Source of the DNA: Minisyncoccota bacterium
Lineage (GTDB): Bacteria; Patescibacteriota; Minisyncoccia; RBG-13-40-8-A
Direction: 5' to 3'
Length of the DNA stretch: 64,000 nucleotides
Assembly (NCBI GenBank): GCA_035528175.1
Contig: DATKZC010000025.1
Span: 431-64,430 of the forward strand
Shown: in pieces, positions 11,076 to 27,327 of the stretch
Layout of the letters: each line of letters starts with the position of its first letter
How positions within the stretch are numbered: the first letter of the stretch is position 1
Notes under the pieces: model-generated
Database searches by the model: none
What the model was told of the DNA's origin: nothing
What the model saw: the letters and a program-made list of their open reading frames with translations, nothing else
Translations under genes and position numbers: made by a program

Positions 11076-13529
11076 TTATTTTAAATTTATCTCTTCTGAT
11101 AAAGCGTCTGCGCCAGGGGCATTGTTCGCTTTAATTTTTGATCTTTCAAAAATTTCTTTATCAACAATTACTTTATCACGTCCGTATTTTATACGCGAAA
11201 GTTCCTTAATTCTTATTGCAATTTGAGAATCGCCCCTTGCCGGTGGATTGCATTTAATATTAAACGGCGTGCTAGTCATGTTATTTATCAATAATTTAAC
11301 ATAAGCATTAAAATTATCAATATTCAACAAATCCTGCGCGCTAAAAACCGGTTCAAATTGTTTTACTAAGAATTCTGCATCGTCAGCTCCAACTCTAAAA
11401 ACGGCCATACTACCAACATTTCCAAATACTGCGTCTTTAATTTTATCCTCCAATTGCCCAATAAATTGATGCGCTATAATTAAATTTAATTTATATTTTC
11501 TCGCTTCAGCTAAAATCGTTGAAATACTATCAGTTGTAAAATTCTGGAATTCGTCAATATAAAGATAAAAATCCGGCCTTTGATCTTCTGGGGTATCTAC
11601 TCTGGAAAAAGCTCCCATTAAAAATTTACCAACAATAATTAAACCCAATAAATAACTATTTAAATCACCCATTTTCCCTTTTGACAAGTTTGCTAAGAAA
11701 ATTTTCTTTTCATTCATTATTTTCCTAAAATCAAAAGCGCTTTTCTGCTGACACAAAATAGGACGCATGATATCGTTTGCTAAAAATATATTTGTTTTGG
11801 AAGTAATATAAGGAACAATATTTGCTAACGAGGCCTCTCCTCCTGCTTTTTCAGCTTCTTTTTCCCAAAAATCTTTAACTACAATATTGTTTGTTTTTGA
11901 AAGCTTATATTTTCTGAATTCCGCATCAACCAACACTTTAGGAACCTCTAAAAGCGTTGCACCTGATTCTGGATCATCCATAACCAATAATAACGCTCCT
12001 CTCATATACTGTTGGAATACCGGACCCATTCCCTCTGGCGCTTCAGGAAAGATTTTTTTGAAAATATTTATCATTTCATTGGCAAGAAAAGTTTTTTGTT
12101 CTGGGAATTTCGGATCATACTCAAGCATGTTTAAACCCATCGGTCTTTCAACGTCACCGGGATTAAAATAAATAACATCTTCCGCTCTTTCTGGAGGAAT
12201 CATGCCCAAAATATCATCAACATCTGAACCATGAGGGTCAATAAAACAAACACCTTTGCCATTCATAATGTCCTGCTTAATCATATTAATCATTAATTTT
12301 GTCTTACCTGTTCCGGTTTGACCAATAACATAAAAATGTCTGCGCCTATCATTTTCAGTCATTCTAATTTCTGTTTCCTCGCCCCTAAAAATATTCTTGC
12401 CGAGTAATACTCCCTCTTTGGAAATATTTATCGGCGGAACCGATTCTTTAGATTTTAACCATTTCATTTTTGGAGAACCAAGCGAAGTCAATGGAAAATG
12501 AAAAATACTTGCCACTTCCTCGCTGTTTAAAATCATTTTTTGCCTTTTACTGAATACTCTGAACGAAAAATAGAAAGAGAGTTTTTTTAAGCCGTTTTTC
12601 TTCATTTTTTCCAATCTTAAAGAATTAAGATTAGGCACGCCGAACTGATAAAAAGAACCTTCCATGTGGGATAAAAGTTCTGCTGACCTTTCCTGTGTAT
12701 TCCCGGAAAACAAGAGCCGAATATTCGCCTCAAATCCGGTTTTTGATATTTTTGATTGCAAAGATTTTATTGTTTCTTGGGCATCTAAAGTCATTTGCGA
12801 CTGGATTTGTGGTTCGCCTTCTTTTGGTTTTTTCGCAATTTTTCCCTTTACAGCATCGATAAAACTCTGCCCTCTATTCATTTTTCTTATAATGGATAAC
12901 CCGAATTTATCCCAGTTTTTCGAAGCTGGTTTTAAAATAATCTGCAATGCCCCACCCTCGCCGGTTTCTTCTATTTTGCTCAATGCAGTGGAAATATTTT
13001 CCAGAGGGTCGATTTCCAATTCTTTGTATGTTTTTATCGGCAAAATACTATTTTTTTCTAATTTTAAAAATCCTCCAGCGCAAGCTCCTTGAGGATTGAA
13101 AATATTGTAATCCTTAACCTTTTGCACGATAGCTTTCGGATAAAACCCGTAAATTTGTTTTTCCAAAAATGTTTCGTATTTTTTGGGAGCTGCCAGATAA
13201 AAAGAAATTTCTGCGCCAGAAAAGGGAACAGCCATTTCTAAAACAATATACGGCTGGCCATAGGAAAACTGAATTCTAGAACCCCTCTCTCTTAAAGACC
13301 CCAAACTTGATAAAAATTGCTCCATCACAGCAATCCTGTTTTTCTTTTCTTCGGCTGACAAATCCTCTTTTGTCTCTCTGGGTATCTTAATTAAAAATAA
13401 ACTCATATTCAGAGCCCTGACAATTAATCCCCTGCCCCTCGATCTTTCAACTAACAAAATAAACGCCAATCCGCCGATTAGAAGCACAATCAGCCCGCTG
13501 ACAATATAAATAAATTGCATTGTCTCCAT
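11076..13529 (-). CDS. Fusion protein: N-terminal membrane-anchored domain plus C-terminal TraD/TraG/VirD4-like type IV coupling-protein P-loop ATPase
   Basis: N-terminal TM, then about 380 aa similar in outline to the separate 429-aa protein at 21704-22993. C-terminal YVIGQTGTGKTK Walker A, FIDPHGSD, YLYIDEFQNF Walker B, and the LIIAHQF...FGNVGSMAVFRVG motif shared with the 513-aa ATPase at 20161-21702. Confidence 0.6.
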   Translation of the reverse strand: METMQFIYIVSGLIVLLIGGLAFILLVERSRGRGLIVRALNMSLFLIKIPRETKEDLSAEEKKNRIAVMEQFLSSLGSLRERGSRIQFSYGQPYIVLEMAVPFSGAEISFYLAAPKKYETFLEKQIYGFYPKAIVQKVKDYNIFNPQGACAGGFLKLEKNSILPIKTYKELEIDPLENISTALSKIEETGEGGALQIILKPASKNWDKFGLSIIRKMNRGQSFIDAVKGKIAKKPKEGEPQIQSQMTLDAQETIKSLQSKISKTGFEANIRLLFSGNTQERSAELLSHMEGSFYQFGVPNLNSLRLEKMKKNGLKKLSFYFSFRVFSKRQKMILNSEEVASIFHFPLTSLGSPKMKWLKSKESVPPINISKEGVLLGKNIFRGEETEIRMTENDRRRHFYVIGQTGTGKTKLMINMIKQDIMNGKGVCFIDPHGSDVDDILGMIPPERAEDVIYFNPGDVERPMGLNMLEYDPKFPEQKTFLANEMINIFKKIFPEAPEGMGPVFQQYMRGALLLVMDDPESGATLLEVPKVLVDAEFRKYKLSKTNNIVVKDFWEKEAEKAGGEASLANIVPYITSKTNIFLANDIMRPILCQQKSAFDFRKIMNEKKIFLANLSKGKMGDLNSYLLGLIIVGKFLMGAFSRVDTPEDQRPDFYLYIDEFQNFTTDSISTILAEARKYKLNLIIAHQFIGQLEDKIKDAVFGNVGSMAVFRVGADDAEFLVKQFEPVFSAQDLLNIDNFNAYVKLLINNMTSTPFNIKCNPPARGDSQIAIRIKELSRIKYGRDKVIVDKEIFERSKIKANNAPGADALSEEINLK

Positions 13530-13530
13530 A

Positions 13531-13905
13531 TTATATCGCTTTCAATTTTCCTTGTTCGACTAATTTTTTATAAAACTCATCTATTAAGGCATCGTGGAAT
13601 TCATCCAAAAGATAAGGATTGTCAAGATTTTTGGCGACCTCCACCGCTTCAATAACTCCCTTTTCAAAAGCCACTTCAATAAGAAGCTGAATCTGTCTGT
13701 CTTTTGGCTGGTCTTTTAATTTCTGCGCTGTTTGTATAGTAGCCTGCTGCTGGCCTGCTGCTGGCTGAGCTGTGGCTATTTTTTCGGAAATAGCTTCTTT
13801 TAGAATTTCTTTTTGCTTTTCTGAACTCAATTCGCCTTCTTTGATTTCTGATTGTTTTAAAATCTCGGCTTTTCTTGCCTCAAAATTTTTATATATTTCT
13901 TCCAT
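13531..13905 (-). CDS. Small acidic/Q-rich helical protein of unknown function
   Basis: 124 aa, fills the gap immediately upstream of the fused ATPase (a 1-bp intergenic gap suggests co-transcription). No recognisable motif. Confidence 0.35.
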   Translation of the reverse strand: MEEIYKNFEARKAEILKQSEIKEGELSSEKQKEILKEAISEKIATAQPAAGQQQATIQTAQKLKDQPKDRQIQLLIEVAFEKGVIEAVEVAKNLDNPYLLDEFHDALIDEFYKKLVEQGKLKAI

Positions 13906-16289: not shown

Positions 16290-17497
16290 TTTATTCCGGT
16301 ATATTTTCTTAAAACCTTCGGAACTTTAATGCTTCCATCTTTTTGCTGATAATTTTCAATAATCGCAATTAATGTTCTACCAATTGCAAAAGCCGTGCCA
16401 TTCAAGGTGTGAACAAATTCCAATCCGTTTTTTGTTTTATATTTAATGTTTAATCTTCGCGCTTGAAAATCAGTACAACTAGAGGTGGAGTGCGTCTCGC
16501 GATACTCGTTCTGCCCCGGAAACCAAGCTTCAATATCATATTTAGCTGCAGCTGGATGGCCTAAATCTCCTGTGCACATTTGCACAACGCGATAGGGTAT
16601 TTTCAAAAGGTTCATCAGTTTTTCCTCCAAAGACAACAGAAATTTGTGTTCTTTTATTGAATCCTCCGGCTTACAAAAACTAAACATTTCAACCTTATCA
16701 AATTGATGAACTCTTAAAATTCCTTTTGTATCCTTGCCATAAGAACCCGCCTCCCTTCTAAAGCAGGTTGAAAATCCAACATATCTTTTTGGCAATTCAT
16801 TTTCATTAAAAATTTCGTCCGCGTGCATTGCGCCCAATGATTGTTCTGATGTGCCTATAAGATAAAGATTATCGCTATTGATATAATATGCTTCCTCGCT
16901 GTTCGTTTGCTCTATATAACCCATGCCCTTGGCCATTTCCGGCTTTATCATTACTGGTGGAATAACCGGAATAAATCCCTCTTTTCCTAAAACATCAAAA
17001 GCTAATCGCACTAATCCAAATTCCAGAATCGCTAAATCGCCTTTCAAATATCCGAAACGCGAGCCAGAAGTTTTAGCTGCGCGTTTCACGTCTATAATAT
17101 CCAGTTTTTCAGCTATTTCCATATAATCCCTTAGTCCTTTTTCTGTTTTGCCGACTGCTTTAATAACTTTATTTCCTGTTTCATTGCTGCCAATTGGCAC
17201 ATCGTCCAAGGGCAGGTTGGGTATTTGATTAAACGAAACCTGAAACTTTAAATTGAGTTCATCTCGTTTTTGCTCCCCCTTTTTTATATCGTCTTTTAGT
17301 TTTCTTAATTCTGCCTCTTTTTCTGGAGCATATTCCGTTCTTGCTCGTTGAGCTCTTAATTCTTCTGTTTTTTTAATTACCTCTCTTTTATTTTTATCTA
17401 ATTCCAAAACTTTATCAATATCAATTTTAGCGCCTTTGTTTTCGCAGGCCTTTTTCACTTTTTCTCGATTTTCGCGTAATAATTTAATATCAATCAT
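16271..17497 (-). CDS. serS: Seryl-tRNA synthetase
   Basis: N-terminal coiled-coil arm, class II motifs (FRREAGSYGKDTKGILRVHQFDKVE, GTAFAIGRTLIAIIENYQ). Confidence 0.9.
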   Translation of the reverse strand: MIDIKLLRENREKVKKACENKGAKIDIDKVLELDKNKREVIKKTEELRAQRARTEYAPEKEAELRKLKDDIKKGEQKRDELNLKFQVSFNQIPNLPLDDVPIGSNETGNKVIKAVGKTEKGLRDYMEIAEKLDIIDVKRAAKTSGSRFGYLKGDLAILEFGLVRLAFDVLGKEGFIPVIPPVMIKPEMAKGMGYIEQTNSEEAYYINSDNLYLIGTSEQSLGAMHADEIFNENELPKRYVGFSTCFRREAGSYGKDTKGILRVHQFDKVEMFSFCKPEDSIKEHKFLLSLEEKLMNLLKIPYRVVQMCTGDLGHPAAAKYDIEAWFPGQNEYRETHSTSSCTDFQARRLNIKYKTKNGLEFVHTLNGTAFAIGRTLIAIIENYQQKDGSIKVPKVLRKYTGIKCIVTK

Positions 17498-18830
17498 TGT
17501 TTTTTGGTTTCATTGTCGGAAATAAAATTATTTCCCGTACTGTTCTTGAATTAGTCAATAAAACCGTTAATCTATCAATGCCAACGCCAATGCCCGCAGC
17601 TGGCGGCATACCGTATTCCAACGCTTCAATAAAGTCCTTATCATACTGGTGTGCTTCCAGATTTCCTCCCCTCCTCTCTATTTCCTGCGCTTTAAATCTC
17701 TCCACTTGGTCAAATGGGTCATTTAATTCGGAAAATCCATTGGCAATTTCCAATCCATTAACAATTAATTGAAATCTCTCTACTTTTTGATTCTTGCCCT
17801 GAGCTTGTCGAAGAGGTTTCGCCAGAGGCGAAATTTCAATCGGGTGATTGATTATAAAAGTAGGTTCTTTAATTTTTGCAAAAACTTCTTTTTCATCTTT
17901 ATTACCGACAATTTTGCTGTATTCCGCTTTTTTAAACTTTTTTCCGAAAACCTTCTTATCCAGTGAACCTAATAATTTTTCCGTAAAATCCATCATTTTA
18001 TTATAATCCCAATAAGCTGCGTAAAACTCCAGCATAGTGAATTCTGGATTATGTTCCCTGTCCATGCCTTCGTTTCTAAAATTTCTGTTTAATTCATAAA
18101 CTTTTTCAAATCCACCAACTAATAACCTTTTTAAATACAATTCCGGCGCAATTCTTAAATATAAATCCATATCCAAGGCATTCAAATGCGTCTCAAACGG
18201 CCTAGCATTTGCTCCACCAGCCATTGTTTGTAGCATTGGAGTTTCAACTTCCAAAAATCCATTTTCATCCAATAATTTTCTGATTTTTTTGATAATTTCC
18301 GACCGCTTTATAAATTTATCTTTAACTTCTTTATTTATCATTAAATCCAGATATCTTTTTCTGAACCTTTCTTCAACATCTTCTAACCCATACCATTCAC
18401 TCGGCAATGGCAATAAAGATTTGGTTAAAATTTTCCAATCCGAAACCAATAAAGTTTTCTCGCCTTTTTTCGTTAAAAATAATTTACCAGTTGCTTGGAT
18501 AAAATCGCCGATATCCACATTTTCCAAAAACAGCTTATACTTCTTTTCGCCAATTTTGTCTTTTTTAAAATAAACTTGAATCTGCACACTTGTGGTGAGC
18601 GAAGTCGAACCATCTTCGATATGCGCAAAAGTCGAACCCCCGTGCTCCCTAATTGAACGCACCCTGCCAACTAAAGTAATTCTCTTATTTGCCAGTTTTT
18701 TGAAATCATTAATTGCCTCCTTATTTGTATGCGTACGCAAAACCTCAGCCGGATACGCATTAATCCCAGCTTTTTTCAAATTTTCAAGTTTTTCTATTCT
18801 AATTTTCCTTATTTCTTCTAAATTATCCAT
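17490..18830 (-). CDS. lysS: Lysyl-tRNA synthetase, class II
   Basis: N-terminal OB-fold anticodon-binding region, class II motifs (YELNRNFRNEGMDREHNPEFTMLEFY, GIGVGIDRLTVLLT). Confidence 0.9.
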   Translation of the reverse strand: MDNLEEIRKIRIEKLENLKKAGINAYPAEVLRTHTNKEAINDFKKLANKRITLVGRVRSIREHGGSTFAHIEDGSTSLTTSVQIQVYFKKDKIGEKKYKLFLENVDIGDFIQATGKLFLTKKGEKTLLVSDWKILTKSLLPLPSEWYGLEDVEERFRKRYLDLMINKEVKDKFIKRSEIIKKIRKLLDENGFLEVETPMLQTMAGGANARPFETHLNALDMDLYLRIAPELYLKRLLVGGFEKVYELNRNFRNEGMDREHNPEFTMLEFYAAYWDYNKMMDFTEKLLGSLDKKVFGKKFKKAEYSKIVGNKDEKEVFAKIKEPTFIINHPIEISPLAKPLRQAQGKNQKVERFQLIVNGLEIANGFSELNDPFDQVERFKAQEIERRGGNLEAHQYDKDFIEALEYGMPPAAGIGVGIDRLTVLLTNSRTVREIILFPTMKPKNND

Positions 18831-18856
18831 ATGATTTTATTATAGCATAATTTTAA

Positions 18857-18899
18857 AATAAAAAAACCCGCTGTTCGCTTTTGCTACTTAGCGGGTTTG
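18857..18899 (-). terminator. Rho-independent terminator for the small membrane-protein gene
   Basis: CCCGCT...AGCGGG stem (18867-18896). On the minus strand it is followed by UUUUUUUAUUUU. Confidence 0.6.
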
Positions 18900-18902
18900 A
18901 GT

Positions 18903-19199
18903 TCACTTTCCGGAAAGCCAGGTAAAAACCCCGGTCAGGGTTTGTTTGGAAAATATAAGGCACAGAATCTCAAATCCTCGATCCAAATTTCGATATATAA
19001 CAATAAAAAAGCCAACGAGCAGCGCCATGCCTAAAACAAAGACTGTCGGAGCAATGATCACGGTCATGATAAACTCAAAAATCATGGTGAGCATAGCTTC
19101 GTTGGATGCCACATGCCAGACTCCCAAGAACATGGCGAAGAGAATCGCCACGACTAAGGGAATCCTCCAAAGCATCCTGTTTCTCTGAATCAATTCCAT
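18903..19199 (-). CDS. Small (98 aa) hydrophobic membrane protein, 2-3 TM helices
   Basis: Near-consensus SD (AAAGGAGGA, 7 nt upstream), an upstream TTGACA box, its own terminator, and a sequence that is almost entirely TM helices. Confidence 0.5.
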   Translation of the reverse strand: MELIQRNRMLWRIPLVVAILFAMFLGVWHVASNEAMLTMIFEFIMTVIIAPTVFVLGMALLVGFFIVIYRNLDRGFEILCLIFSKQTLTGVFTWLSGK

Positions 19200-19296
19200 T
19201 GTTTCCTCCTTTGTTTTTTTATTGTAATTTAAAACTGATAATAATCAGTTTTATGACTATTATCAGCTTAGCACATACAATTATTTTTGTCAATGG
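19200..19296 (-). promoter_or_regulatory. Promoter, perfect palindrome and SD for the small membrane-protein gene
   Basis: On the minus strand: TTGACA (plus coordinates 19288-19293), about 18-nt spacer, TAAGCT. The perfect 9-bp/4-nt-loop palindrome AAAACTGAT-AATA-ATCAGTTTT (19231-19252) is followed by a third TGATAATAG half-site (19255-19267), then the AAAGGAGGA SD. Confidence 0.5.
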
Positions 19297-19689
19297 TTAT
19301 TCTTTTTCCTCCTCTACTACTTTGTCCTCTCGATTAGAAGCAAAAATATATGCTTCATGAACCAAGGAACCATTAATCTGTGTATCCTCTGATATTTTGG
19401 TTTCGGATTTAAAGTCTAATAACGCTTGTATTATATGATCTTCTTTTCGAAAAATCCCAATTCGTGCTATGGATTTTCTTTCTTCTGAATCAAGATGACC
19501 ATCTAATAATCCTTTCGTAAATTTAAATATTTCTCCTCTATTTGCTTCTGTAGCCCAAGAAGCACATAATATAACCGTCCATTTGTCTGTTAATTCATCT
19601 ATTTTCATAATCGCAAATAAAACAACATCACCTTTTGAGGCTTTAATCTCGGATAATATCTTCTGAAATTTTTCTGTTATATTTCCCAT
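19297..19689 (-). CDS. Unknown 130-aa protein, downstream partner of the HEPN-like gene, ending in an acidic tail
   Basis: 13-bp overlap with the upstream gene. No GS...DxD nucleotidyltransferase motif. C-terminal EDKVVEEEKE. Confidence 0.35.
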   Translation of the reverse strand: MGNITEKFQKILSEIKASKGDVVLFAIMKIDELTDKWTVILCASWATEANRGEIFKFTKGLLDGHLDSEERKSIARIGIFRKEDHIIQALLDFKSETKISEDTQINGSLVHEAYIFASNREDKVVEEEKE

Positions 19690-20117
19690 TGTTTTTTTAT
19701 ACGATTAATTAAATTTTTAAGATTATTATGCACCCTAGCTGTTTTAATCTCATCCCAACCAGGATCTAAAGTATATCTTAATGTAGGCCAATTTCCATGA
19801 AACTCCTGTGTGAATCCTGACCAATCTTCATATAACTCTCCATCGTAGCCCAAAACATCTACCATACCGGATAATATTAATAAGGTTTCAAATTCGTGAG
19901 CTCTAAAAAAGGTAGGTATTTTTTCAGACGAAAAATTTTTTTGAGGACAATCTGGATAATCAGATAAGTGAAGAGTTTTACAAATAACTGCCTTTAGAGC
20001 ACATTCTAATGCATAGCCCATCATATATGCAGCCATGCCCCAATCCTTTGCAGATATAAGTGTATTAATTGTCGTTAATCGAGCATCTGTAATATTGCGA
20101 AGATCTTGTGATGTCAT
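19677..20117 (-). CDS. HEPN-like domain protein
   Basis: AKDWGMAAYMMGYALECALKAVI resembles the first HEPN helix (A..EkalKA). Later FRAHEFETLLIL (H.L..L) and NWPTLRYTLDP (R-Y-x-x-P C-terminal HEPN signature). By-eye assignment only. Confidence 0.45.
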   Translation of the reverse strand: MTSQDLRNITDARLTTINTLISAKDWGMAAYMMGYALECALKAVICKTLHLSDYPDCPQKNFSSEKIPTFFRAHEFETLLILSGMVDVLGYDGELYEDWSGFTQEFHGNWPTLRYTLDPGWDEIKTARVHNNLKNLINRIKKQWEI

Positions 20118-20160
20118 TTACTATTATACTATGAATAAATAATAAAGAAAATTGAACCTT

Positions 20161-21702
20161 CTACTTTTTTTTGTCTTCCCCTACTGCTTTTTTGATTGCT
20201 TCACGAATGCCAACAAGGTCAATTTCCGGCTTTTGTTTTTTAATCGGCTGAGATTGAGTATTTGGTTTTTTCTCTCTTTCTTTTTGTAAACAGGACGAAC
20301 AATAAACCGGCCTTACTCCATCTGGTTTAAAAGCAACTTTGGTTTTTTTGCCGCAATCAGAACAAACTGCCTCAAATTTTTTCGCTTCTTCTTCTGTTTC
20401 TGCCACTTCACTCCATCTAGCAATTTTTTCTTCCACTGCTTTTCGCGATATGGTATATCTTTCGCGGGAGAGTTTAATAATTTTATCCTCAAAAGATTTT
20501 TTAGGAACCGTAGATGGAGCCATGGTCTGAGCGCTGAAAGCCCGAGAAGCAACACCATCAATCATTAGTTTTAAATAAATAGTATACTTTGTTAAATTGA
20601 CTAAATCATCGGCAATAAATACTGGCAGAAATTCCCTTTCCAAAAACTCGGCATCATCTGCGCCAACACGGAAAGTAATCAGAGTTCCGACATTGCCGAA
20701 AATCGCATCTCTTACTTTAGTATTTTTGCCTTTATCGCCCATAGAATCTAATTGAGCAACATATTGATGGGCTAAAGTCAGACAGAGATGATATTTTCTG
20801 GCCTCAGAAAGAATGCTCGCAAATGCGTCTGTGGCAAAAGTTTGGAATTCATCAACATAAAGATAAAAATCTTTTCTTTCGTGTTCAAGCACATCCACCC
20901 TACTCATAGCCGCAAGTTGTAATTTGGTTATTACCAAAGCTCCCAACAACTGACTGGCGTCCTCACCAACTCTACCTTTTGAAAGATTGACAATTAAAAT
21001 CTTCCCTTGGTCCATTATCTCCCGCATATCAATTGACGACTTAACTTGTCCGATAATATTCCTGATTAAGGGAGTAGAAATAAATTGCCCGACCTTATTT
21101 TGAATCGGCGCTACTGCTTCTTCCCTGAATCGGTCAGGATATTTGGCAAATTCATTTGTCCAAAACGCTTTTACGCTGGGATCAGTAACCTTTTCCAGAA
21201 CTTTTTGGCGATAATCCTTGTCAGCTAAAAGACGATTAACACCCAAAAGAGTTGAGCCGGGATATTCCAGTAATGATAAAATCGCATTTCTTAAAATATA
21301 TTCCATCCTTGCGCTCCAAACATCAGGCCAGATTTTCTTAAATACGCCCATTAAACCAGAAACAACCAAATGACGGTATTCTGGCTCAACATTCTCCATA
21401 ATATTAAAAGTAATAGGATATTCCAAATCAGCAGGATTGAAATAAATTATATCATTCACCCTGTTAGACGGAACAAAATCAAGCATTGTTTCCGCAAAAT
21501 CTCCATGCGGATCAACAATTGCTACGCCATGCCCATTTTGGATATCTTGAATTGCCATATTTTTCAGAAGTTCTGATTTCCCTGTACCGGTTTTACCAAC
21601 GACATAGACATGCTGGCGCCTGTCTTTTGTTTTTATGCCAAATTTTGTCCGTTTGTTGCGGAAATTTGTTTCGCCTAAAATTGTTATTTCGTTTTCAATC
21701 AT
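20161..21702 (-). CDS. TraD/TraG/VirD4-like P-loop ATPase with a C-terminal zinc ribbon, stand-alone
   Basis: YVVGKTGTGKSE Walker A, VDPHGDF, YLYVDEFQTF Walker B, TLAHQY...FGNVGTLITFRVGADDAEFL. The C-terminal CSDCGKKTKVAFKPDGVRPVYCSSC is a CxxC-x17-CxxC ribbon. Confidence 0.6.
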   Translation of the reverse strand: MIENEITILGETNFRNKRTKFGIKTKDRRQHVYVVGKTGTGKSELLKNMAIQDIQNGHGVAIVDPHGDFAETMLDFVPSNRVNDIIYFNPADLEYPITFNIMENVEPEYRHLVVSGLMGVFKKIWPDVWSARMEYILRNAILSLLEYPGSTLLGVNRLLADKDYRQKVLEKVTDPSVKAFWTNEFAKYPDRFREEAVAPIQNKVGQFISTPLIRNIIGQVKSSIDMREIMDQGKILIVNLSKGRVGEDASQLLGALVITKLQLAAMSRVDVLEHERKDFYLYVDEFQTFATDAFASILSEARKYHLCLTLAHQYVAQLDSMGDKGKNTKVRDAIFGNVGTLITFRVGADDAEFLEREFLPVFIADDLVNLTKYTIYLKLMIDGVASRAFSAQTMAPSTVPKKSFEDKIIKLSRERYTISRKAVEEKIARWSEVAETEEEAKKFEAVCSDCGKKTKVAFKPDGVRPVYCSSCLQKEREKKPNTQSQPIKKQKPEIDLVGIREAIKKAVGEDKKK

Positions 21703-21703
21703 A

Positions 21704-22993
21704 TTATTGGACTATAGGAAGCTCGCTGGGCGGTCCGCCTTTCTTGGCTTCAATCTTAGATAATCTTTCAGCTTCAACAAACTTCCCAGGAAGATGGAAA
21801 ATTGTTGCCAGTTCCTCAATATTAAAAACAAATCCCCTAGTTTTGAGCTTATGAAACGGAAAAAATCTTTTCTTGAAAATACCCACAAAAAATCTTCTCT
21901 GTCCCGGCTCTCTTTTTCTTTTAAAGATTTTCCCCCTTCCAGGAGTGGATTTTTTATTGATTTTAAAACCATTTAGATTTTGGGTATTAAATTGTCTGAA
22001 AAATCCAGCTACTACTGTTGGCTTGTCCTTGGAAAAAAGATCTTTAGGCGCCCAATACATAAATCTTATCATTGTTTTAAATCCTATTTTTCCAATATTC
22101 CTTTCAATTGCCAAAACAACTTCTTTCTGACCTGGGGTTAAAAACGGCATAACTTTTTCGACTTTCTTTTCCCCGCCAACAGCACCCTCCTCGCCCCCCA
22201 AGCCAAAAAATCTTGCAATACCCTGACCCAACGCTTCAAGCCAGCTTCTAGCTTCTTCCACTATCATTAATCCTTTCTTGCTTTCTTTTACTTCTTTGCC
22301 AATTATATTTCCAACCAAATTTTCCCCATCTTTTATCCATTGTTTATCGGTAACTGGACTGATTGGGCTGATTAAGATATGAATGGCAATGCTTTCTTTC
22401 GGATTCAAGCTGCTTAAAAATTCAAAAAGTCCGGCAATGGGGTCAGTTCTTTCTTCTGCTTCTTTTTCCTCAAAAAACACCGGATAAGTCCTAATAGGAT
22501 AAGCATCCTGCTTGGTTAAAATCAATTCTGTGCCCCAGGCATCAAAATCCGCGGTCGGAGTGCCGGGCGGAATACTGTTTATATAATCCTCCGCATCTAT
22601 TATTTCTGCTTGTGGGTATTGGGCGTAAAGATGTGATTCAACAAGATTTCTGTATTTTGCTTCGGTTCTGATATAAAAATGGATCTCCCCGCCATGCCCA
22701 AGCATTTCAATGCTAAACCATGGAGGAAGGTCGCCTTTTATATATTTCTCTTTAAATTTTCTCCCCTTTTCAGCAGCGTGCAAGCCAGCAAAAAACTGCT
22801 CCATGGCTTTCGGCGTTTTAATTAGATCTCTAGGAAATTTTACTTCCAAAATAATCCATTCCAAACCTCGTATATATTTAACAATAAGATAATTCACCCA
22901 GAGATGCTTTAAGAATAAAAAAAGAGCTATTGGTGCGATAATCCACCAATAACTCACAAATATATCCCTATAAATATTAAGGATTTCAGTCAT
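21704..22993 (-). CDS. Membrane-anchored partner protein of the TraD/VirD4-like ATPase
   Basis: N-terminal TM pair, then a soluble domain with the same outline as the N-terminal 380 aa of the fused 817-aa protein (EVKFPRD / LIKIPRET, HFYIRTEAKY / SFYLAAPKKY). A 1-bp gap separates it from the ATPase gene. Confidence 0.5.
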   Translation of the reverse strand: MTEILNIYRDIFVSYWWIIAPIALFLFLKHLWVNYLIVKYIRGLEWIILEVKFPRDLIKTPKAMEQFFAGLHAAEKGRKFKEKYIKGDLPPWFSIEMLGHGGEIHFYIRTEAKYRNLVESHLYAQYPQAEIIDAEDYINSIPPGTPTADFDAWGTELILTKQDAYPIRTYPVFFEEKEAEERTDPIAGLFEFLSSLNPKESIAIHILISPISPVTDKQWIKDGENLVGNIIGKEVKESKKGLMIVEEARSWLEALGQGIARFFGLGGEEGAVGGEKKVEKVMPFLTPGQKEVVLAIERNIGKIGFKTMIRFMYWAPKDLFSKDKPTVVAGFFRQFNTQNLNGFKINKKSTPGRGKIFKRKREPGQRRFFVGIFKKRFFPFHKLKTRGFVFNIEELATIFHLPGKFVEAERLSKIEAKKGGPPSELPIVQ

Positions 22994-23025
22994 GAAATAG
23001 TTAAATTGCTTGTTTTAAGGCTGTT

Positions 23026-24066
23026 TTAAGCTAAAATATATTTTCCATTTTCCAATCTCTTTACTTTTGGAGATCGGTGAAGGTTCAAAATGATTGTATT
23101 TGGCCTCACCTGCCGTTTTGCCAGAACAGAATCAATAATTTCTTTCCTGGTTAACGGTTTTTTGTTTTCAACTAAAGTCTTTTGAATCACTTCCTCCACT
23201 GTTCCCGATTCATAACCCCAATCAGTAAGAGCATAGGTTCCTCTTCCTACTAAAATAAATCTTGGGTCTTTTATTAATTCATTATGAACAGTCTGAGTAT
23301 AAGCCGGCTTATCTACGAATATCTTATTTATCAACTCAGTAATAGCAGTAAAATGGCGAGGTTCGCCTTCTTTTTTAAGGATTAAATAGGCGCGGTCTTT
23401 TACTCCCTGCGGAGAAATCTCCGGCCAATAATTTAAACCAATTTCTCCGAAAATATTTTTGTTAATTTCTCTAGAGATTTCCAAAACAACAGAAAACATT
23501 TTTGGGGGAATATTGGAATGCTTCCTGGAAAGTAAATCAAAAACTTCTGATTCATGAAAAACTTTATCGTGCTTCTTAAAATGGTCAATTAAAAAATCAA
23601 TAATTTCCTTGGCTTTCTGACGGGCAGATTTGTGAGCAACCCAGTAAGGATGGAATTTTTCATCTCTGGCTATTCTTTCGAACGGCTCGCCCAATGTCAA
23701 TGCTAAATAAATATAACCCCTTGAAGTATGGGGTTCGGTTGTTCCAGTTGCAGCATGATACAAATAATTCTCCCCCATAATATGGCCGTGCGCGAAAAAT
23801 AAATCATTCAAATAATCGAAAGCTGCCTCAAAAAATGGCAGAACTTTTTCTGATTTAAGAATTTTTATCCCATTTTCTTCTAATTGCCTAACTCTTTCCC
23901 TGGTTATACCATGGTTTTGGCCAATAGCTTCCAGGGTTTCGCTTTTACCGTTCTTTAACCCAAATCGACGCTCAATAACCTCTCTGACCCTCGGGTTGCT
24001 CAAATATAAAAGCGCCTTTTCTATTTTTTTAGAAATATCTTTAGAAATTGTTGATTTCTTGTTCAT
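23026..24066 (-). CDS. Two-domain DNA-binding protein: sigma-70 region 4 HTH plus a C-terminal HARE-HTH-like winged helix
   Basis: N-terminal VREVIERRFGLKNGKSETLEAIGQNHGITRERVRQLEENGIKILK is a textbook sigma-70 region 4.2. The C-terminal FILVGRGTYALTDWGY matches the HARE-HTH GRG.Y.L..W pattern. No sigma region 2 or 3. Confidence 0.5.
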   Translation of the reverse strand: MNKKSTISKDISKKIEKALLYLSNPRVREVIERRFGLKNGKSETLEAIGQNHGITRERVRQLEENGIKILKSEKVLPFFEAAFDYLNDLFFAHGHIMGENYLYHAATGTTEPHTSRGYIYLALTLGEPFERIARDEKFHPYWVAHKSARQKAKEIIDFLIDHFKKHDKVFHESEVFDLLSRKHSNIPPKMFSVVLEISREINKNIFGEIGLNYWPEISPQGVKDRAYLILKKEGEPRHFTAITELINKIFVDKPAYTQTVHNELIKDPRFILVGRGTYALTDWGYESGTVEEVIQKTLVENKKPLTRKEIIDSVLAKRQVRPNTIILNLHRSPKVKRLENGKYILA

Positions 24067-24111
24067 ATGTTTATTCTTATAAGATTAATATACTACATTA
24101 AAAATTGTCTG

Positions 24112-25014
24112 TCAAGAACCAATTCTTTTTCTACCCCAACTTATCAATAAAGCGCTAGCAATGAAAAGCGAAGTATATGTCCCTACAACAATTCCGATTA
24201 TCAATGTCAATGAAAAATATTTCAGCGTTTCGCCTCCTAAAAAGAATATAGAAAAAAGAACCAAAAGCGTGCAAAAACCAGTACTAAGCGAACGGCTAAT
24301 TACCTGATTCAAGCTTTGATTTATTGTCCCAGCAAAATCTTCCGACCTTGTTCTTAAAATATTTTCTCTTACCCTATCAAAAACAATTACCTTATCATTC
24401 ATGGTATAACCCAAAATAGTAAGCAAAGCAGCCACAATCGGTATATTAAATTGAACATTATTGAATTTTCCGAGCAAAATCAAAACAAAAACCGGAATAA
24501 TAACATCAATTGCCAGGGTAATAATCGAAACCAGCCCGTATTGCCAGCCGCTGATTGGCCAGGAAAGCTTTCTGAACGCAACAGCAATATAAATAAGCAA
24601 TGAAATCAAGGAAATGACTATCAGGGTAATTGTTTTGTTGCGCAGCTCCTTACCTATTGTCGGGCCAATACTCTCAAATCTTCCTTCCTCAACTTTTGAA
24701 ATTTCATTCAAACTGGATAACATCTGCTGATGGACATTTTCATCAATATCTTTAAATCTCAAAATAATGCCTTTTTCTCCTGTTGGCTGTATAATAATTT
24801 CACCTAAATCAAATTTATTTAATTTTTCCTGAATAATAGCATTATCCGGCCTATTCTCAAATTGAAATTCCCAAATTGTCCCACCCAAAAAATCAATTCC
24901 AAGATTCAATCCCAAAATAAATAGACAGGCTATGCTGGCAATAATAAGAATACTAATCAAGAAGTAATGTATTTTATAATATTTTACAAAGGGAAAATTC
25001 ATATTTATAGCCAA
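24112..25014 (-). CDS. secF: Protein translocase subunit SecF
   Basis: LGLNLGIDFLGGTIWEF and a 6-TM SecD/F fold. Its stop overlaps secD. Confidence 0.85.
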   Translation of the reverse strand: MAINMNFPFVKYYKIHYFLISILIIASIACLFILGLNLGIDFLGGTIWEFQFENRPDNAIIQEKLNKFDLGEIIIQPTGEKGIILRFKDIDENVHQQMLSSLNEISKVEEGRFESIGPTIGKELRNKTITLIVISLISLLIYIAVAFRKLSWPISGWQYGLVSIITLAIDVIIPVFVLILLGKFNNVQFNIPIVAALLTILGYTMNDKVIVFDRVRENILRTRSEDFAGTINQSLNQVISRSLSTGFCTLLVLFSIFFLGGETLKYFSLTLIIGIVVGTYTSLFIASALLISWGRKRIGS

Positions 25015-26354
25015 AGCTTTTTAATTTTCTCTCCATTTATGCTGAAGAAAAACTTAATTAAATAATTGGTGATTACGATTGCTGAAAACATGTTCACTAA
25101 ATTACCAACAACCAAAGTAAGGGCGAATCCTTTAACAAAACTAGTGCCGAAAATAAATAAAATCAAACCAACCAAGATGGTGGTAAAATTTCCGTCCCTA
25201 ATCGAAGGCCATGCTCTCTTAACGCCATTAGTCAAAGCATCCAGATAATTCCTTCCATTCTTTAATTCCTCTTTAGTTCTAGAAAATATCAAAATGTTGG
25301 CATCAACAGCCATGCCCATTGAAAGCAAAAAACCAGCAATGCCAGCTAGAGTAAGAGTTACTGGCACTAATTTAAAAACAGCCAAAAGCAATAGAACATA
25401 AATTATCAGAGAAATGGAAGCAAAAAATCCGCTCAAGCGGTAGGAAATAATCATAAATAAGAGTATTGCCAAAAATCCGATTATTCCCGCTTTCAAACTC
25501 TTGGTCAGAGAATCGTGCCCTAAAGAAGCTCCGATGCTCTGCTGACCGATTAAGTTAATCGGCACTGGCAAGGCTCCGGTATTTAATCTTTCAGCCAATT
25601 GCTTAGCTTCTTTCTGGGTAAATTGTCCGCTAATCTGAGCTTTGCCGCTCGGAATTTCTTCATTCACAACCGGAATACTGATTGGCGCCCCATCCAGATA
25701 AATAGCTAATCTTTTGCCTATGTTTTTCTTGGTCAAATCAGCAAAAATTTTCGCACCTTCATTATCAAACTCCAAAGTGACATATGGCTGATAAGTAGTC
25801 TGATCAAATTCCAATTGTGCGCTTTTCAAAAATCTGCCGGTCAAAGAAGTATTTGTAAAATCTGTTCCATCTGCATTTTCTTCTTTAAATTCCAGATACG
25901 GAGTTCCACCAATCATTTCAATTGCTTCAGCGACATCTCTAACTCCAGGCAGTTCTATAATCAGACGGTTGGAGTCCCCTACTTTATTAATCTGGACTAA
26001 TGGCTCGGCAACGCCGAATAGATTCACCCTCCTTTCAATTAAATCTCTAATTCCGTCCATAGATGAATCTCTATCTATCTCTCCTATTCCAGCAAGGTTC
26101 GCTTCATAAACTAAATGCGTCCCGCCTTGTAAATCCAGTCCTAATCTGAATGGTAATTTGTAAAACTCTGGAAGATTGAATCCAATTTGAGAATTCACCC
26201 AATTGACTGCCTTATCCCATAATACTGGATAATCCAGGGAGCCAGCTAAAACAAGTAAAATAAAAATCCCCAGCACAATCAGCCGGATTTTACTTTTTTC
26301 TTTGGCCGCATAATTCCCCTTTTCAACTGTTTGTTTTCTGTCTATAAAAGCCAT
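25005..26354 (-). CDS. secD: Protein translocase subunit SecD
   Basis: LGLDLQGGTHLVYEA periplasmic-domain signature and a C-terminal 6-TM domain. Confidence 0.85.
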   Translation of the reverse strand: MAFIDRKQTVEKGNYAAKEKSKIRLIVLGIFILLVLAGSLDYPVLWDKAVNWVNSQIGFNLPEFYKLPFRLGLDLQGGTHLVYEANLAGIGEIDRDSSMDGIRDLIERRVNLFGVAEPLVQINKVGDSNRLIIELPGVRDVAEAIEMIGGTPYLEFKEENADGTDFTNTSLTGRFLKSAQLEFDQTTYQPYVTLEFDNEGAKIFADLTKKNIGKRLAIYLDGAPISIPVVNEEIPSGKAQISGQFTQKEAKQLAERLNTGALPVPINLIGQQSIGASLGHDSLTKSLKAGIIGFLAILLFMIISYRLSGFFASISLIIYVLLLLAVFKLVPVTLTLAGIAGFLLSMGMAVDANILIFSRTKEELKNGRNYLDALTNGVKRAWPSIRDGNFTTILVGLILFIFGTSFVKGFALTLVVGNLVNMFSAIVITNYLIKFFFSINGEKIKKLWL

Positions 26355-26400: not shown

Positions 26401-27327
26401 TTATTTTCCGCGACGCTTCTTCTCAATGAAATAATCTCTCATTAATATTGCTCCTTCATCCTGCGTATCTTTGGCTTCACAAATTACAACAGGATTCAAA
26501 CCTCTTTTTAAGATAGCGTCAATAAAGGGTTCGACCTGAGGATAATATCTATCATCATTATAATAGTCATCTTTTGAAAAAGCTAATTGATTACCTTTTG
26601 TTTTATCAGAAAATGCCTTATGACCCTTCTCTCCGGTATGATCTATTCCTACTGGATACATATGAAAATGACATTGTTTTAACATTTTCTTGCCCAAATG
26701 TTTTTCAATAGTGTCAAAAATGTTCAATATGTCTTCGGGAGCTTTTAAAATTCCTCCTTCGCGTGCATGCAAGTGTGCCAGATCTAGACAAGGTCTTGCA
26801 AAGTTGACCTTGTTACAAATTTCTATAATCTCCATTAACGACCCTAATTGATTTACCTTGCCTGATATTTCAGGATATATCTTAATTTTTTCTGTCGGCA
26901 AGTCGTCCTTAATTTCATTTAGATTTTGAATAAGTTTATCTAGTCCTGCTTTTCTATCATTATCAGAAGTGCCTGGAAAGTGTCCTGGATGAAAAATTAT
27001 TCTCTGCGAGTTTATTAGTTCTGCCAGATGAAATGCTTTTTTAATTCTCTCTTGGGATCTTTTTACTATTTCTTTGTCCTTGCTTGCAAGAGTAATGTAA
27101 TAAGGGGCATGAATTGAAATTCCAATTTTATATCGCGAGGCTAATTCTCTATATTTAATAGCTTGCTCATCAGGCATCTTAATTCCGTAAGTATTCTGTA
27201 ATTCAATCCAATTCAAACCAAGAAAATTTAACCATTGAAAAATATTTTCTCGCTTATTTTTAAAATCACTTTTAAAAAAATTCGGGGGGAAACCAGCAAC
27301 GCCAAATTTAACTTCGGGTTCAGGCAT
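26401..27327 (-). CDS. nfo: AP endonuclease family 2 (endonuclease IV-like TIM barrel) with a C-terminal extension
   Basis: HAPYYITLAS (Endo IV: HAPYLINLA), IFHPGHF, and CLDLAHLHA metal-binding His/Asp pattern. Confidence 0.55.
   Translation of the reverse strand: MPEPEVKFGVAGFPPNFFKSDFKNKRENIFQWLNFLGLNWIELQNTYGIKMPDEQAIKYRELASRYKIGISIHAPYYITLASKDKEIVKRSQERIKKAFHLAELINSQRIIFHPGHFPGTSDNDRKAGLDKLIQNLNEIKDDLPTEKIKIYPEISGKVNQLGSLMEIIEICNKVNFARPCLDLAHLHAREGGILKAPEDILNIFDTIEKHLGKKMLKQCHFHMYPVGIDHTGEKGHKAFSDKTKGNQLAFSKDDYYNDDRYYPQVEPFIDAILKRGLNPVVICEAKDTQDEGAILMRDYFIEKKRRGK

Follow-up and report, generated by a model that had tools for sequence, protein, structure and literature searches.

Between secDF and lysS of a Minisyncoccota bacterium, a conserved ATPase operon adjoins a recent insertion with a HEPN-like gene pair

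The locus belongs to contig DATKZC010000025.1 of a Minisyncoccota bacterium, and coordinates refer to the window, i.e., the whole analysed stretch of 64,000 nucleotides. It is flanked by lysS (17490–18830, tRNA-synt_2 1.6e-87) on one side and by secF (24112–25014) and secD (25005–26354) on the other, and the six genes between them are contiguous and, like the flanks, located on the minus strand. The preliminary description had listed a small membrane protein with strong expression signals, an overlapping pair of a HEPN-like and an unknown gene, a split ATPase module, and a stand-alone sigma-r4/HARE-HTH regulator, and all six genes were recovered on the minus strand at the coordinates given below. 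The implicit treatment of these genes as a single unit, however, is not correct. The block of 5.2 kb consists of two unrelated parts with separate histories, a core operon of three genes (20161–24066) and an insertion (18831–20160), which differ in both synteny and composition.

The first core gene (23026–24066, minus strand) encodes a protein of 346 aa that carries an N-terminal sigma-70 region-4 domain (aa 4–74, nt 23845–24057; Sigma70_r4 3.6e-10 in Pfam) and a HARE-HTH domain (aa 222–283, nt 23218–23403; 6.3e-07), as expected of the regulator described earlier. A PDB search with its family profile hits region 4 of primary sigma factors (E about 1e-20), the region 4 of the protein being nearly as good as theirs, and its HARE-HTH part matches model TIGR04567 of the RNA polymerase delta subunit (4.6e-07), thus resembling the N-terminal domain of delta (RpoE of Firmicutes). 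In contrast to both relatives, it joins the two domains in one chain, has neither sigma regions 1–3 (region 2 included) nor an acidic delta-like tail according to Pfam domains and sequence, and is encoded next to a membrane ATPase module. Of all sigma-70-like promoter matches in the region, the best (TTGACA-17-TATATT, 11/12, 24087–24115, minus strand), which is a consensus match only, overlaps the 3′ end of secF just upstream of this gene.

The second core gene (21704–22993, minus strand) encodes a DUF8128 protein of 429 aa with an N-terminal membrane anchor (aa about 10–38), and its structural model matches VirB4/TrwK, whose fold the soluble part shares. Because no other RecA-type ATPases appear among the matches, the matched part of TrwK, as judged from these matches rather than read from the alignment, is presumably the VirB4 N-terminal domain. 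The DUF8128 stop codon is followed after 1 nt by the start of the third gene (20161–21702, minus strand), which is translationally coupled to it and encodes a soluble TrwB/VirD4/TraD-like P-loop ATPase of 513 aa with more than 8000 homologues. Its Walker A (GKTGTGKS, aa 36–43, nt 21574–21597), Walker B (DE, aa 284–285), and C-terminal CxxC-x17-CxxC zinc finger (aa 442–476, nt 20275–20379), the latter followed by a Lys-rich tail, are invariant in A2. For this type of zinc finger, zinc binding has been demonstrated experimentally elsewhere (PMC12704099). According to Pfam, the ATPase matches zf_Tbcl_2 (8.3e-15), TrwB_AAD_bind (1.7e-11), and DUF87 (2.8e-10), as well as T4SS-DNA_transf and TraG-D_C; NCBIfam reports TraD and the VirD4-like CD1115 family, and the coupling proteins (T4CPs) TrwB and DotL are the sole significant matches of the PDB profile search (3e-06 and 4e-05, respectively).

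The split nature of the ATPase module, also part of the preliminary description, is confirmed by a fused paralogue of 817 aa (11076–13529, minus strand), which is likewise conserved in relatives and does not have the zinc finger. The 429-aa and 513-aa proteins align to it colinearly, at residues 16–366 (25% identity, 7e-22) and 369–799 (40% identity, 1e-109), respectively, and phrog_5156 spans both of its halves. Since the paralogue joins the two halves in one chain, the separate proteins form one functional unit. Together with the VirB4/TrwK match of the DUF8128 model, the pair therefore looks like one VirB4-shaped protein that was split in two and whose motor resembles that of coupling proteins, its fused paralogue lying 7 kb away.

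The gene order secD-secF-[sigma4/HARE-HTH]-[DUF8128]-[ATPase]-lysS is kept in the same orientation in 6 to 8 contigs of close relatives (L001–L005 and L172–L174), with ATPase identities of 95, 95, 95, 86, 83, and 73% in six of them. Beyond these, most genomes in a species-level set of 80 that spans many lineages of Patescibacteria contain HARE-DUF8128-ATPase, often behind secDF. The gene immediately upstream of the ATPase encodes DUF8128 in 56 of 75 genomes, the HARE gene lies two genes upstream in 44 of 70, and secF is found further upstream of the trio in 24 of 58. These 80 loci were the top-ranking ones out of more than 600 matches, so the fractions do not amount to an unbiased census. The reciprocal scan, starting from the HARE gene, finds DUF8128 downstream of 16 of 19 full-length relatives, 12 of them also with the ATPase. 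The trio is therefore not obligatory, as roughly one in four genomes of the sample (19/75) has the ATPase with no detectable DUF8128 upstream, and four HARE-DUF8128 loci of the reciprocal scan have no adjacent ATPase.

The median ATPase identity over the 80 species equals 58.6%, close to the 59.5% of SecA, which is encoded in seven of these loci. Elsewhere the downstream neighbours of the module are housekeeping genes (MnmA, AlaRS, PGK, DHH, DnaK/J, and EF-P), and only one locus with the module is found among 2.9 million viral contigs. The third-position GC content (GC3) of the three core genes is within 0.5 standard deviations of the window mean (z-scores of −0.5, +0.2, and −0.3). The core operon is thus vertically inherited, housekeeping-like, and conserved across much of Patescibacteria, and it lies outside any conjugative element, T4SS gene cluster, or defence island.

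Regarding the function of the first gene, it might encode an RNA-polymerase-associated factor, in which case its linkage to the ATPase would not concern substrate delivery but stem from a coupling between transcription and a membrane machine, or simply from operon history. Sigma region 4 and HARE-HTH each contact RNA polymerase in canonical settings, the profile matches to primary sigma factors and delta described above point the same way, and the gene heads the operon behind its best promoter match. The protein, however, is missing sigma region 2 and the acidic tail, and its two-way linkage to DUF8128 (44/70 and 16/19) exceeds what is expected for a general transcription factor, which leaves this explanation rather unlikely, if the strongest of the alternatives considered here.

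In comparison with known T4CPs (TrwB of R388, VirD4, TraD, and DotL), the motor shares the Pfam and NCBIfam families listed above and intact Walker A and B motifs. It differs, however, in having no transmembrane segment in the ATPase chain, in the C-terminal zinc finger, and in being preceded by the putative VirB4-type N-terminal domain, to which the paralogue is fused. Moreover, its gene has neither relaxase nor T4SS genes nearby and is chromosomal, vertically inherited, and conserved at the level of SecA. As for VirB4/TrwK, the ATPase of the T4SS inner-membrane complex, DUF8128 shows no resemblance to VirB4 families at the sequence level, T4CP models fit the ATPase half with far better scores than VirB4 models do, the unit is split into two genes (20161–22993), and no VirB3, VirB6, or VirB8 partners of the core module are located nearby. 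A published counterpart is the group of orphan VirD4-type T4CP homologues of Quinonero-Coronel et al. (2025), whose criteria, as given in the T4CP passages of that study, both the ATPase and its fused paralogue fit (PMC12102498). The same passages leave the function and exaptation of the orphan homologues in Patescibacteria open, and describe no DUF8128 or VirB4-like partner, zinc finger, sigma-r4/HARE-HTH neighbour, or secDF linkage.

The trio might then be a working part of the Patescibacteria T4SS, namely, its missing coupling protein with genes located outside the virB4 cluster, and feed this machine protein or DNA substrates. The similarity of the motor to T4CPs and of the DUF8128 model to VirB4/TrwK (to its N-terminal domain, as presumed above) is consistent with this proposal, and the essential T4SS cluster of Saccharibacteria has no recognisable coupling protein (PMC10633639). 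T4CP genes are also often located away from virB4, according to the T4CP passages of PMC12102498. The same passages, however, report 5,713 VirD4-type homologues in 2,918 Patescibacteria genomes (about two per genome), which far outnumber the 148 located near virB4. They also report that in Southlakia epibionticum the T4CP homologue, unlike the T4SS genes, is non-essential, which, as far as these passages go, argues against an indispensable role of the core module as well. In addition, no T4SS genes were found within 10 kb of the module in any locus examined, and a coupling protein bearing an N-terminal domain of the VirB4 type departs from known T4CP design. Membership of the trio in the T4SS is hence unlikely.

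The second part of the block is a strain-specific insertion of 1,330 bp (18831–20160) placed exactly between the stop codon of the ATPase and the start codon of lysS, which are 1 nt apart in relatives. The window matches the sequence of the relative L001, which has this single nucleotide, up to both junctions. The inserted segment is absent from L001–L005, L172–L174, and 80 other genomes, and its junction is reassembled in five short contigs (two from ENA assemblies, two from JGI metagenomes, and one from a Logan run). The insertion revealed neither an integrase nor direct or inverted repeats at its flanks, in agreement with the preliminary description, so that no mobility gene or repeat accounts for its arrival. 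Its three genes, referred to as A, B, and C, have GC3 values of 0.22, 0.21, and 0.55 (z-scores of −2.9, −3.2, and +5.7, respectively). The 1.33-kb segment is thus compositionally foreign and was recently inserted at the 1-nt gap that separates the ATPase gene from lysS.

Gene A (19677–20117, minus strand, 146 aa) is preceded by a consensus TATAAT (20123–20128) 5 nt before its ATG and looks leaderless. Although its sequence yields a weak HEPN assignment (PF05168, E = 0.035, below the Pfam threshold), the best 14 PDB matches of its AlphaFold model (pLDDT 85.6) in Foldseek are HEPN proteins only, so that the fold is confirmed at the level of the predicted structure. Among 5.8 billion proteins only 20 homologues were found, and the protein also scores against PDC-M28A of PADLOC (3e-05) and phrog_5737 (4.6e-08). 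Gene B (19297–19689, minus strand, 130 aa) is DUF8379-like, has no Pfam or PDB sequence match and no recognisable fold, and overlaps gene A by 13 nt, which bears out the overlapping pair of the preliminary description. In each of the other four contigs read, which represent three distinct contexts, a homologue of gene B lies behind a HEPN-like gene, and the two genes overlap in three of these contigs (four of five counting the window), while in L008 a gap of 43 nt separates them. A spacer of 97 nt between gene B and the membrane gene folds with −23.2 kcal/mol (z-score of −5.1) and contains a hairpin with a 16-bp stem (19232–19269, minus strand), which may be a terminator or an operator.

Gene C (18903–19199, minus strand) is an orphan of 98 aa with two hydrophobic segments. 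No other of the window's 58 ORFs with 90 aa or more has a perfect 7-nt Shine-Dalgarno sequence like its AAGGAGG, and 43 lack a Shine-Dalgarno sequence altogether; an intrinsic terminator follows gene C (18857–18898, minus strand; 9-bp GC-rich stem and U7, −15.2 kcal/mol), in line with the strong expression signals ascribed to it earlier. The gene probably comes from a donor with higher GC content that uses Shine-Dalgarno sequences. Beyond the terminator, 8 nt before the ATG of lysS, an extended −10 element (TGcTATAAT, 18839–18847) is predicted to act as a replacement promoter for lysS; L001 has no such terminator or −10 sequence, and its lysS lies directly behind the ATPase stop codon. The insertion brought the HEPN-fold/DUF8379 pair, the orphan membrane gene, a terminator, and a putative new lysS promoter.

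Judging by gene arrangement and composition, the pair is probably a module of the toxin-antitoxin (TA), abortive-infection, or defence type. Similarly to HEPN-MNT type II TA and other two-gene HEPN defence cassettes, it is small, bicistronic, and mostly overlapping, includes a HEPN-fold component, and is sporadically distributed and compositionally foreign; one of its three contexts is defence-island-like, among Fic, Schlafen/AlbA_2, HD, and GmrSD genes. In contrast to HEPN-MNT, gene B is DUF8379-like rather than a minimal nucleotidyltransferase, the HEPN gene comes first, and there is no conserved Rx4-6H motif, the canonical RNase signature. The lack of motif conservation and the score of the window protein below the Pfam HEPN threshold would also suit a HEPN adaptor that is not catalytic and whose partner has a housekeeping or regulatory role. 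Within the same explanation, the 98-aa ORF would be spurious, given that it was called in only one of five independent assemblies and that, among 1.84 billion representatives, only the identical sequence itself and two weak relatives were found. Sporadic occurrence, foreign composition, the gene order kept in every context read, and the defence-island-like context, however, speak against an adaptor. So does an Acinetobacter plasmid whose distantly related HEPN gene overlaps a different partner and lies beside BrnT/BrnA, i.e., the partner swapping typical of TA systems. The ORF, in turn, has its perfect Shine-Dalgarno sequence and its own terminator, and shares its N-terminal 37 residues with another membrane protein. 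Taken together, this combination of an adaptor and a spurious ORF is doubtful.

The preliminary description regarded the whole 18.9–24.1 kb as an accessory islet, in which the grouping of a regulator and a nucleic-acid ATPase with a HEPN pair resembled a defence neighbourhood. Accessory status holds for 18831–20160, a quarter of the block, which is absent from every relative and whose genes are foreign according to GC3. It does not hold for 20161–24066 (three of six genes, ~75% of the length), which is typical of the window in composition and retained between secDF and lysS, so that the syntenic presence across the lineage named there as evidence against an islet is what was found for this part. 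Since the core trio is syntenic with secDF and the HEPN segment occurs in the insertion only, the regulator and the ATPase belong to no HEPN-pair defence neighbourhood, and their adjacency to the pair is an accident of the landing site. A single islet whose regulator, ATPase, and HEPN pair cooperate in defence or mobile-element interaction is highly improbable: despite the co-orientation and contiguity of the six genes and PADLOC matches of the ATPase (mad8, 4e-18, and HerA), the sigma-r4 domain (MzaA), and the HEPN-like protein (PDC-M28A), these matches amount to generic P-loop and HTH similarity, the composition differs sharply between the two parts, the HEPN pair and membrane gene occur in 0 of 88 other ATPase-anchored loci, and the synteny of three of six genes with secDF in all close relatives and most sampled lineages already largely refutes it.

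A vertically inherited operon of the core trio joined by a recent insertion with the HEPN pair is therefore a probable explanation of the block as a whole. As for the working of the core module, in the most likely model DUF8128 would dock the ATPase ring at the cytoplasmic membrane, and the ring would spend ATP on moving a substrate made of nucleic acid or nucleoprotein. Contact with this substrate would fall to the zinc finger and basic tail of the ATPase, and perhaps to the HTH protein; alternatively, the HTH protein may simply regulate its operon. Family resemblance together with the zinc finger and basic tail suggests DNA as the putative substrate, while the linkage to secDF could hint instead at a role in protein export.

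All genes from 15.7 to 35.8 kb of the window lie on the minus strand, and the six that the preliminary description had placed between lysS and secF are all present (the identities of lysS, secF, and secD were checked directly). From the secF side these are a 346-aa Sigma70_r4 and HARE-HTH protein (23026-24066, hereafter the HARE protein), a 429-aa DUF8128 protein (21704-22993), a 513-aa TrwB/VirD4/TraD-like ATPase with a C-terminal CxxC-x17-CxxC zinc finger (20161-21702), a 146-aa weak-HEPN ORF (19677-20117) that overlaps a 130-aa ORF (19297-19689) by 13 nt, and a 98-aa protein with two hydrophobic segments (18903-19199), all on the minus strand. The window is a contig of Patescibacteria (candidate phyla radiation), and its ATPase matches a 'Candidatus Paceibacterota' MAG protein at 100% identity. 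The description of this block as an accessory islet holds for a 1.33-kb insertion with the three small genes (18831-20160). It does not hold for 20161-24066, which makes up 75% of the block, and a defence-islet reading of the whole is mostly wrong, as the ATPase, DUF8128, and HARE genes are syntenic with secDF across relatives.

Relatives were found via look-ups of ATPase homologues that returned long contigs (ATPase 95, 95, 86, 83, and 73% identical), and their common gene order is secA-secD-secF-[Sigma70_r4/HARE-HTH]-[DUF8128]-[ATPase]-lysS-(HD)-serS. Region 20161-24066 is present in all close relatives (L001-L005 and L172-L174). A one-genome-per-species scan with the ATPase gave at least 600 matches, of which the best 80 loci were kept and their ORFs searched with iterated HMMs; the fractions that follow refer to these best 80 of at least 600 loci and are not a census. 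They include Nealson-, Wildermuth-, Falkow-, Uhr-, Morani-, Magasanik-, Buchanan-, Niyogi-, Wolfe-, Nomura-, Kerfeld-, Doudna-, and Liptonbacteria, among others. DUF8128 lies immediately 5' of the ATPase in 56 of the 75 loci with enough DNA, the HARE protein precedes the DUF8128-ATPase pair in 44 of 70, and secF is found farther upstream in 24 of 58. The three small genes occur in none of the 80. Adjacency to lysS was rejected as part of the conserved module, being confined to close relatives (0/66 in the wider set). In a reciprocal metagenome scan from the HARE protein, 19 full-length relatives could be evaluated; 16 have DUF8128 as the next gene downstream, and in 12 of those loci a split or fused ATPase comes after it. 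Repeated downstream neighbours in other lineages are MnmA, AlaRS, PGK, DHH phosphoesterase, DnaK/DnaJ, and EF-P, and over 83 loci the recurrent neighbours (larger neighbour clusters annotated) are housekeeping genes. The median identity of the ATPase is 58.6% over the best 80 of at least 600 loci, compared with 59.5% for SecA in the seven loci having both. As for composition, GC3 z values of the ATPase, DUF8128, and HARE genes (−0.5, +0.2, and −0.3, respectively) all lie no more than 0.5 sd from the mean of the 52 long genes in the window. Judging by synteny, housekeeping neighbours, SecA-like conservation, and typical GC3, 20161-24066 is therefore a vertically inherited core operon and not an accessory islet, a correction that prevents its misclassification as mobile DNA.

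Roughly one in four of the best 80 of at least 600 loci is arranged otherwise: the ATPase is longer, a second paralogue is present, and DUF8128 is not detected. Among Paceibacterota and Nomurabacteria, L049, L050, L060, L064 (6873-16347, as an example), L075, L080, L082, and L088 have an ATPase of ~680 aa with neither DUF8128 nor the HARE gene upstream. The second ATPase paralogue of such loci (42-45% identity) lies downstream in 6 of 8 and upstream in L049 and L054, and some of them have a ~576-aa protein, which matches no known family, in repeated copies nearby. These loci may represent a different machine built on the same motor. Four HARE-DUF8128 loci (L099, L100, L103, and L110) have no adjacent ATPase; in L100 the gene after DUF8128 resembles an MltG/YceG-type transglycosylase, judged by eye.

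Several records with ATPases 57-66% identical (L012, L017, L018, L019, L028, L037, L046, L047, L057, L083, and P0089) are titled Gammaproteobacteria, Bdellovibrionales, Planctomycetota, or Humimicrobiaceae. In 5 of 10 such loci (L012, L017, L028, L037, and L047) the HARE and DUF8128 genes are upstream too, and L028 also has secDF; the titles probably reflect mislabelled MAG taxonomy rather than transfer. A phage origin of the ATPase was rejected on the basis of a single locus among 2.9 million viral contigs, despite phrog_5156 covering both the DUF8128 and ATPase halves; the one IMG/VR 'viral' contig concerned (IMGVR_UViG_3300015370_000561) carries an ATPase that is 60% identical, and may be either a genuine phage or a Patescibacteria fragment wrongly classed as viral.

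A second variable slot was observed near secD. An AP_endonuc_2/xylose-isomerase-like TIM-barrel gene (2.4e-27; 26401-27327), located between DUF1653 and secD, is missing from that slot in the five relatives. The secA-secD interval is thus counted as variable, since its small genes differ per relative (nothing, a 127-aa ORF, or dCMP deaminase plus Peptidase_M15).

Regarding the insertion itself, alignment shows that the window and the contig of relative L001 are identical as far as the ATPase stop and resume their identity at the lysS ATG, these two points being separated by 1 nt in L001 versus 1,330 bp in the window (18831-20160). According to gene tables, lysS directly follows the ATPase in L002-L005 and L172-L174 as well, with a gap of at most 4 nt or a short overlap. 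The synteny check thus supports accessory status for the insertion, which is absent from relatives, and contradicts it for the trio, which is present in all. An assembly chimera is rejected because the identical junction recurs in five short contigs whose sources are two ENA assemblies, two JGI metagenomes, and one Logan run. GC3 divides the block in the same manner: the three large genes are typical of the window, and the three small ones deviate (−2.9, −3.2, and +5.7 sd for the HEPN-like, 130-aa, and 98-aa genes, respectively), being three of only four outliers among window ORFs of at least 90 aa. Since the deviations have opposite signs, at least two donors are suggested. The fourth strong outlier is a class I methyltransferase gene (49000-49689; GC3 0.175, z −4.1) which, with the DUF218 and cytidylyltransferase genes around it, probably belongs to a variable glycan cluster. 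As the preliminary description had stated, no integrase or flanking repeats are found: the insertion junctions have no direct or inverted att-like repeats, and none of the six proteins has a recombinase domain in Pfam or NCBIfam. Rfam and tRNA scans report no RNA genes in the region.

The insertion carries several expression signals. A consensus TATAAT lies 5 nt upstream of the HEPN ATG, and the 97-nt spacer between the 130-aa and membrane genes contains a hairpin with a 16-bp AT-rich stem (19232-19269, z −5.1). This hairpin, which may act as a terminator or an operator, coincides in part with a weak promoter-like match; a TTGACA hexamer is located at 19288-19293. The strong expression signals attributed to the small membrane protein are borne out by its AAGGAGG Shine-Dalgarno; of the 58 ORFs picked, no other has a 7-nt match. 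After the 98-aa ORF a terminator follows (9-bp GC-rich hairpin plus U7, 18857-18898), and an extended −10 (TGcTATAAT) lies 8 nt before lysS. With these two elements the insertion would uncouple lysS from the upstream operon, supplying both a terminator and a likely replacement promoter. According to a simple substring test, a Shine-Dalgarno-like motif is lacking upstream of 43 of the 58 window ORFs that reach 90 aa, and the HEPN-like gene and lysS each have a consensus −10 box 5-8 nt before the ATG, which suggests that leaderless or SD-independent initiation is frequent in this organism.

A search of 5.8 billion proteins gave the HEPN-like protein only 20 homologues, the best non-self one being 60% identical. 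Its AlphaFold model (pLDDT 85.6) has HEPN proteins as all of its 14 best PDB matches (probability 0.63-1.0, E 0.02-1). The window protein scores under the Pfam HEPN threshold (14.7 versus 22 bits), and a Pfam HEPN match is on record for 5 of its 19 homologues; matches of the window protein to the PADLOC candidate PDC-M28A (3e-05) and phrog_5737 were also obtained. In the alignment of homologues R13, E38, K42, and H74 are invariant and R114 and Y115 nearly so; the canonical Rx4-6H RNase motif is not conserved. In 4 of 4 other contigs, representing three distinct contexts, the HEPN-like gene is followed by a 118-120-aa homologue of the 130-aa protein (33-49% identity), and the two genes overlap except in L008 (43-nt gap). 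One context is surrounded by Fic, Schlafen/AlbA_2, HD, and GmrSD/HNH genes. The 130-aa protein has no Pfam or NCBIfam match and no PDB sequence match even at an E of 10; one orthologue has a weak precomputed match to DUF8379. Thus, the pair resembles HEPN-MNT toxin-antitoxin systems in the helical fold of its HEPN-like member, but differs in having no conserved Rx4-6H and a partner that is not MNT, the role of MNT antitoxin being rejected for want of a nucleotidyltransferase match in Pfam or NCBIfam. A phage or plasmid origin was likewise rejected, with no instance in IMG/VR or GenBank phages and two weak plasmid matches whose partners are non-homologous. On an Acinetobacter plasmid, the gene of a distant HEPN relative overlaps a different partner and adjoins BrnT/BrnA. 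We read the pair as a putative cassette of toxin-antitoxin or abortive-infection type, belonging to an uncharacterised HEPN subfamily. The product of the 98-aa ORF is an orphan: besides the identical sequence, a search of 1.84 billion representatives gives two weak relatives, and one of them has the first 37 residues and the C-terminal WLxGK in common with it. The insertion as a whole is a clean natural example of a tiny HEPN-type pair and an orphan membrane gene placed in a 1-nt intergenic gap.

As for the conserved trio, the 'split ATPase' of the preliminary description stands. The 429-aa and 513-aa proteins align in colinear order to an 817-aa fused paralogue (11076-13529, minus strand) that is kept in relatives, the former to residues 16-366 (25% identity, 7e-22) and the latter to residues 369-799 (40% identity, 1e-109). 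Together with phrog_5156, which spans both halves, and the 1-nt spacing of the two genes, this colinearity indicates that they are, on sequence grounds, a gene-fission form of one protein. The fused paralogue has no zinc finger and is preceded by a conserved ORF for a soluble helical 124-aa protein with no family match (13531-13905); the pair (11076-13905) is conserved in close relatives.

The ATPase exceeds the Pfam cut-offs for TrwB_AAD_bind (44.1 versus 20.5 bits) and TraG-D_C (25.5 versus 22 bits) and matches TraD and VirD4-like NCBIfam models (1e-13 to 1e-09), with equivalog cut-offs not reached. Its only significant PDB sequence relatives are TrwB and DotL. VirB4-like NCBIfam models match weakly and partially (1.2e-04 and 4.3e-04), and no CagE_TrbE_VirB Pfam match is reported. 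By sequence, then, the motor is closest to coupling proteins rather than VirB4. Walker A, Walker B, and the four zinc-finger cysteines are invariant in the alignment, and this type of finger binds zinc in Methanosarcina small proteins (PMC12704099). DUF8128 has no PDB sequence homologue even at an E of 10; its model matches VirB4/TrwK, which gives this domain of unknown function a structural assignment as a probable VirB4-type N-terminal domain.

The ATPase of the trio thus shares with type IV coupling proteins (T4CP; VirD4/TrwB/TraD) an FtsK/HerA-superfamily P-loop motor matching T4CP families. In contrast to them, however, the 513-aa ATPase has no hydrophobic segment, the anchor being on the separate DUF8128 protein, and precomputed Pfam annotation gives no relaxase or T4SS mating-pair-formation genes within 10 kb in close relatives. 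It differs from VirB4 systems in that VirB3, VirB6, and VirB8 are not annotated in the flanks of close relatives. The study of Quinonero-Coronel et al. 2025 (PMC12102498) counts 5,713 VirD4-type homologues in 2,918 Patescibacteria genomes, only 148 of them near virB4, so the existence of these ATPases was already known. It also states that the S. epibionticum T4CP homologue is not essential and that exaptation cannot be excluded. An alternative is that the trio is the missing coupling protein of the Patescibacteria T4SS; the essential Saccharibacteria T4SS has no recognisable coupling protein (Wang et al. 2023, PMC10633639), and against this stands the lack of T4SS genes nearby in close relatives. 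Another alternative, suggested by the secDF neighbourhood, links the trio to protein export.

Regarding the HARE protein, the domain at its N-terminus matches primary sigma factors in region 4 (E about 1e-20), and Pfam, NCBIfam, and PDB profile searches detect region 4 only. Because region 2 is absent, the protein is, by domain content, not a sigma factor. It may alternatively be a plain operon regulator or an RNA-polymerase factor. In our working model of the trio, DUF8128 would anchor and scaffold the ATPase ring at the membrane, like the VirB4 N-terminal domain, and the motor would translocate or remodel a substrate. Nucleic acid or nucleoprotein is the most likely one, given the zinc finger and lysine-rich tail of the ATPase and the two-HTH protein linked to it.

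Literature searches on DUF8128 and on HARE-HTH in the candidate phyla radiation returned nothing, and no published description was found of the VirB4-like partner, of its occurrence fused to or split from the ATPase, of the zinc finger, or of the linkage to HARE/sigma4 and the secDF neighbourhood. Orphan T4CP homologues, which according to the literature number in the thousands in Patescibacteria with their role left open, thereby gain a candidate VirB4-like membrane partner, split or fused, as well as a zinc finger, a tightly linked sigma4/HARE-HTH protein, a housekeeping context by secDF, and SecA-level conservation. These additions provide concrete testable hypotheses in organisms where genetics has only recently become feasible. 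The most far-reaching reading, to which we assign a low probability, is that the secDF-linked trio is a Patescibacteria-wide, housekeeping-grade, T4SS-independent translocase of nucleic acid or nucleoprotein, and a third architectural branch of VirB4/VirD4 that combines a VirB4 N-terminal domain with a coupling-protein motor. Its roles would be, for example, DNA import or export with a host cell, or chromosome handling. If true, the translocase reading would provide a function for the thousands of 'orphan T4CP' genes of the lineage.
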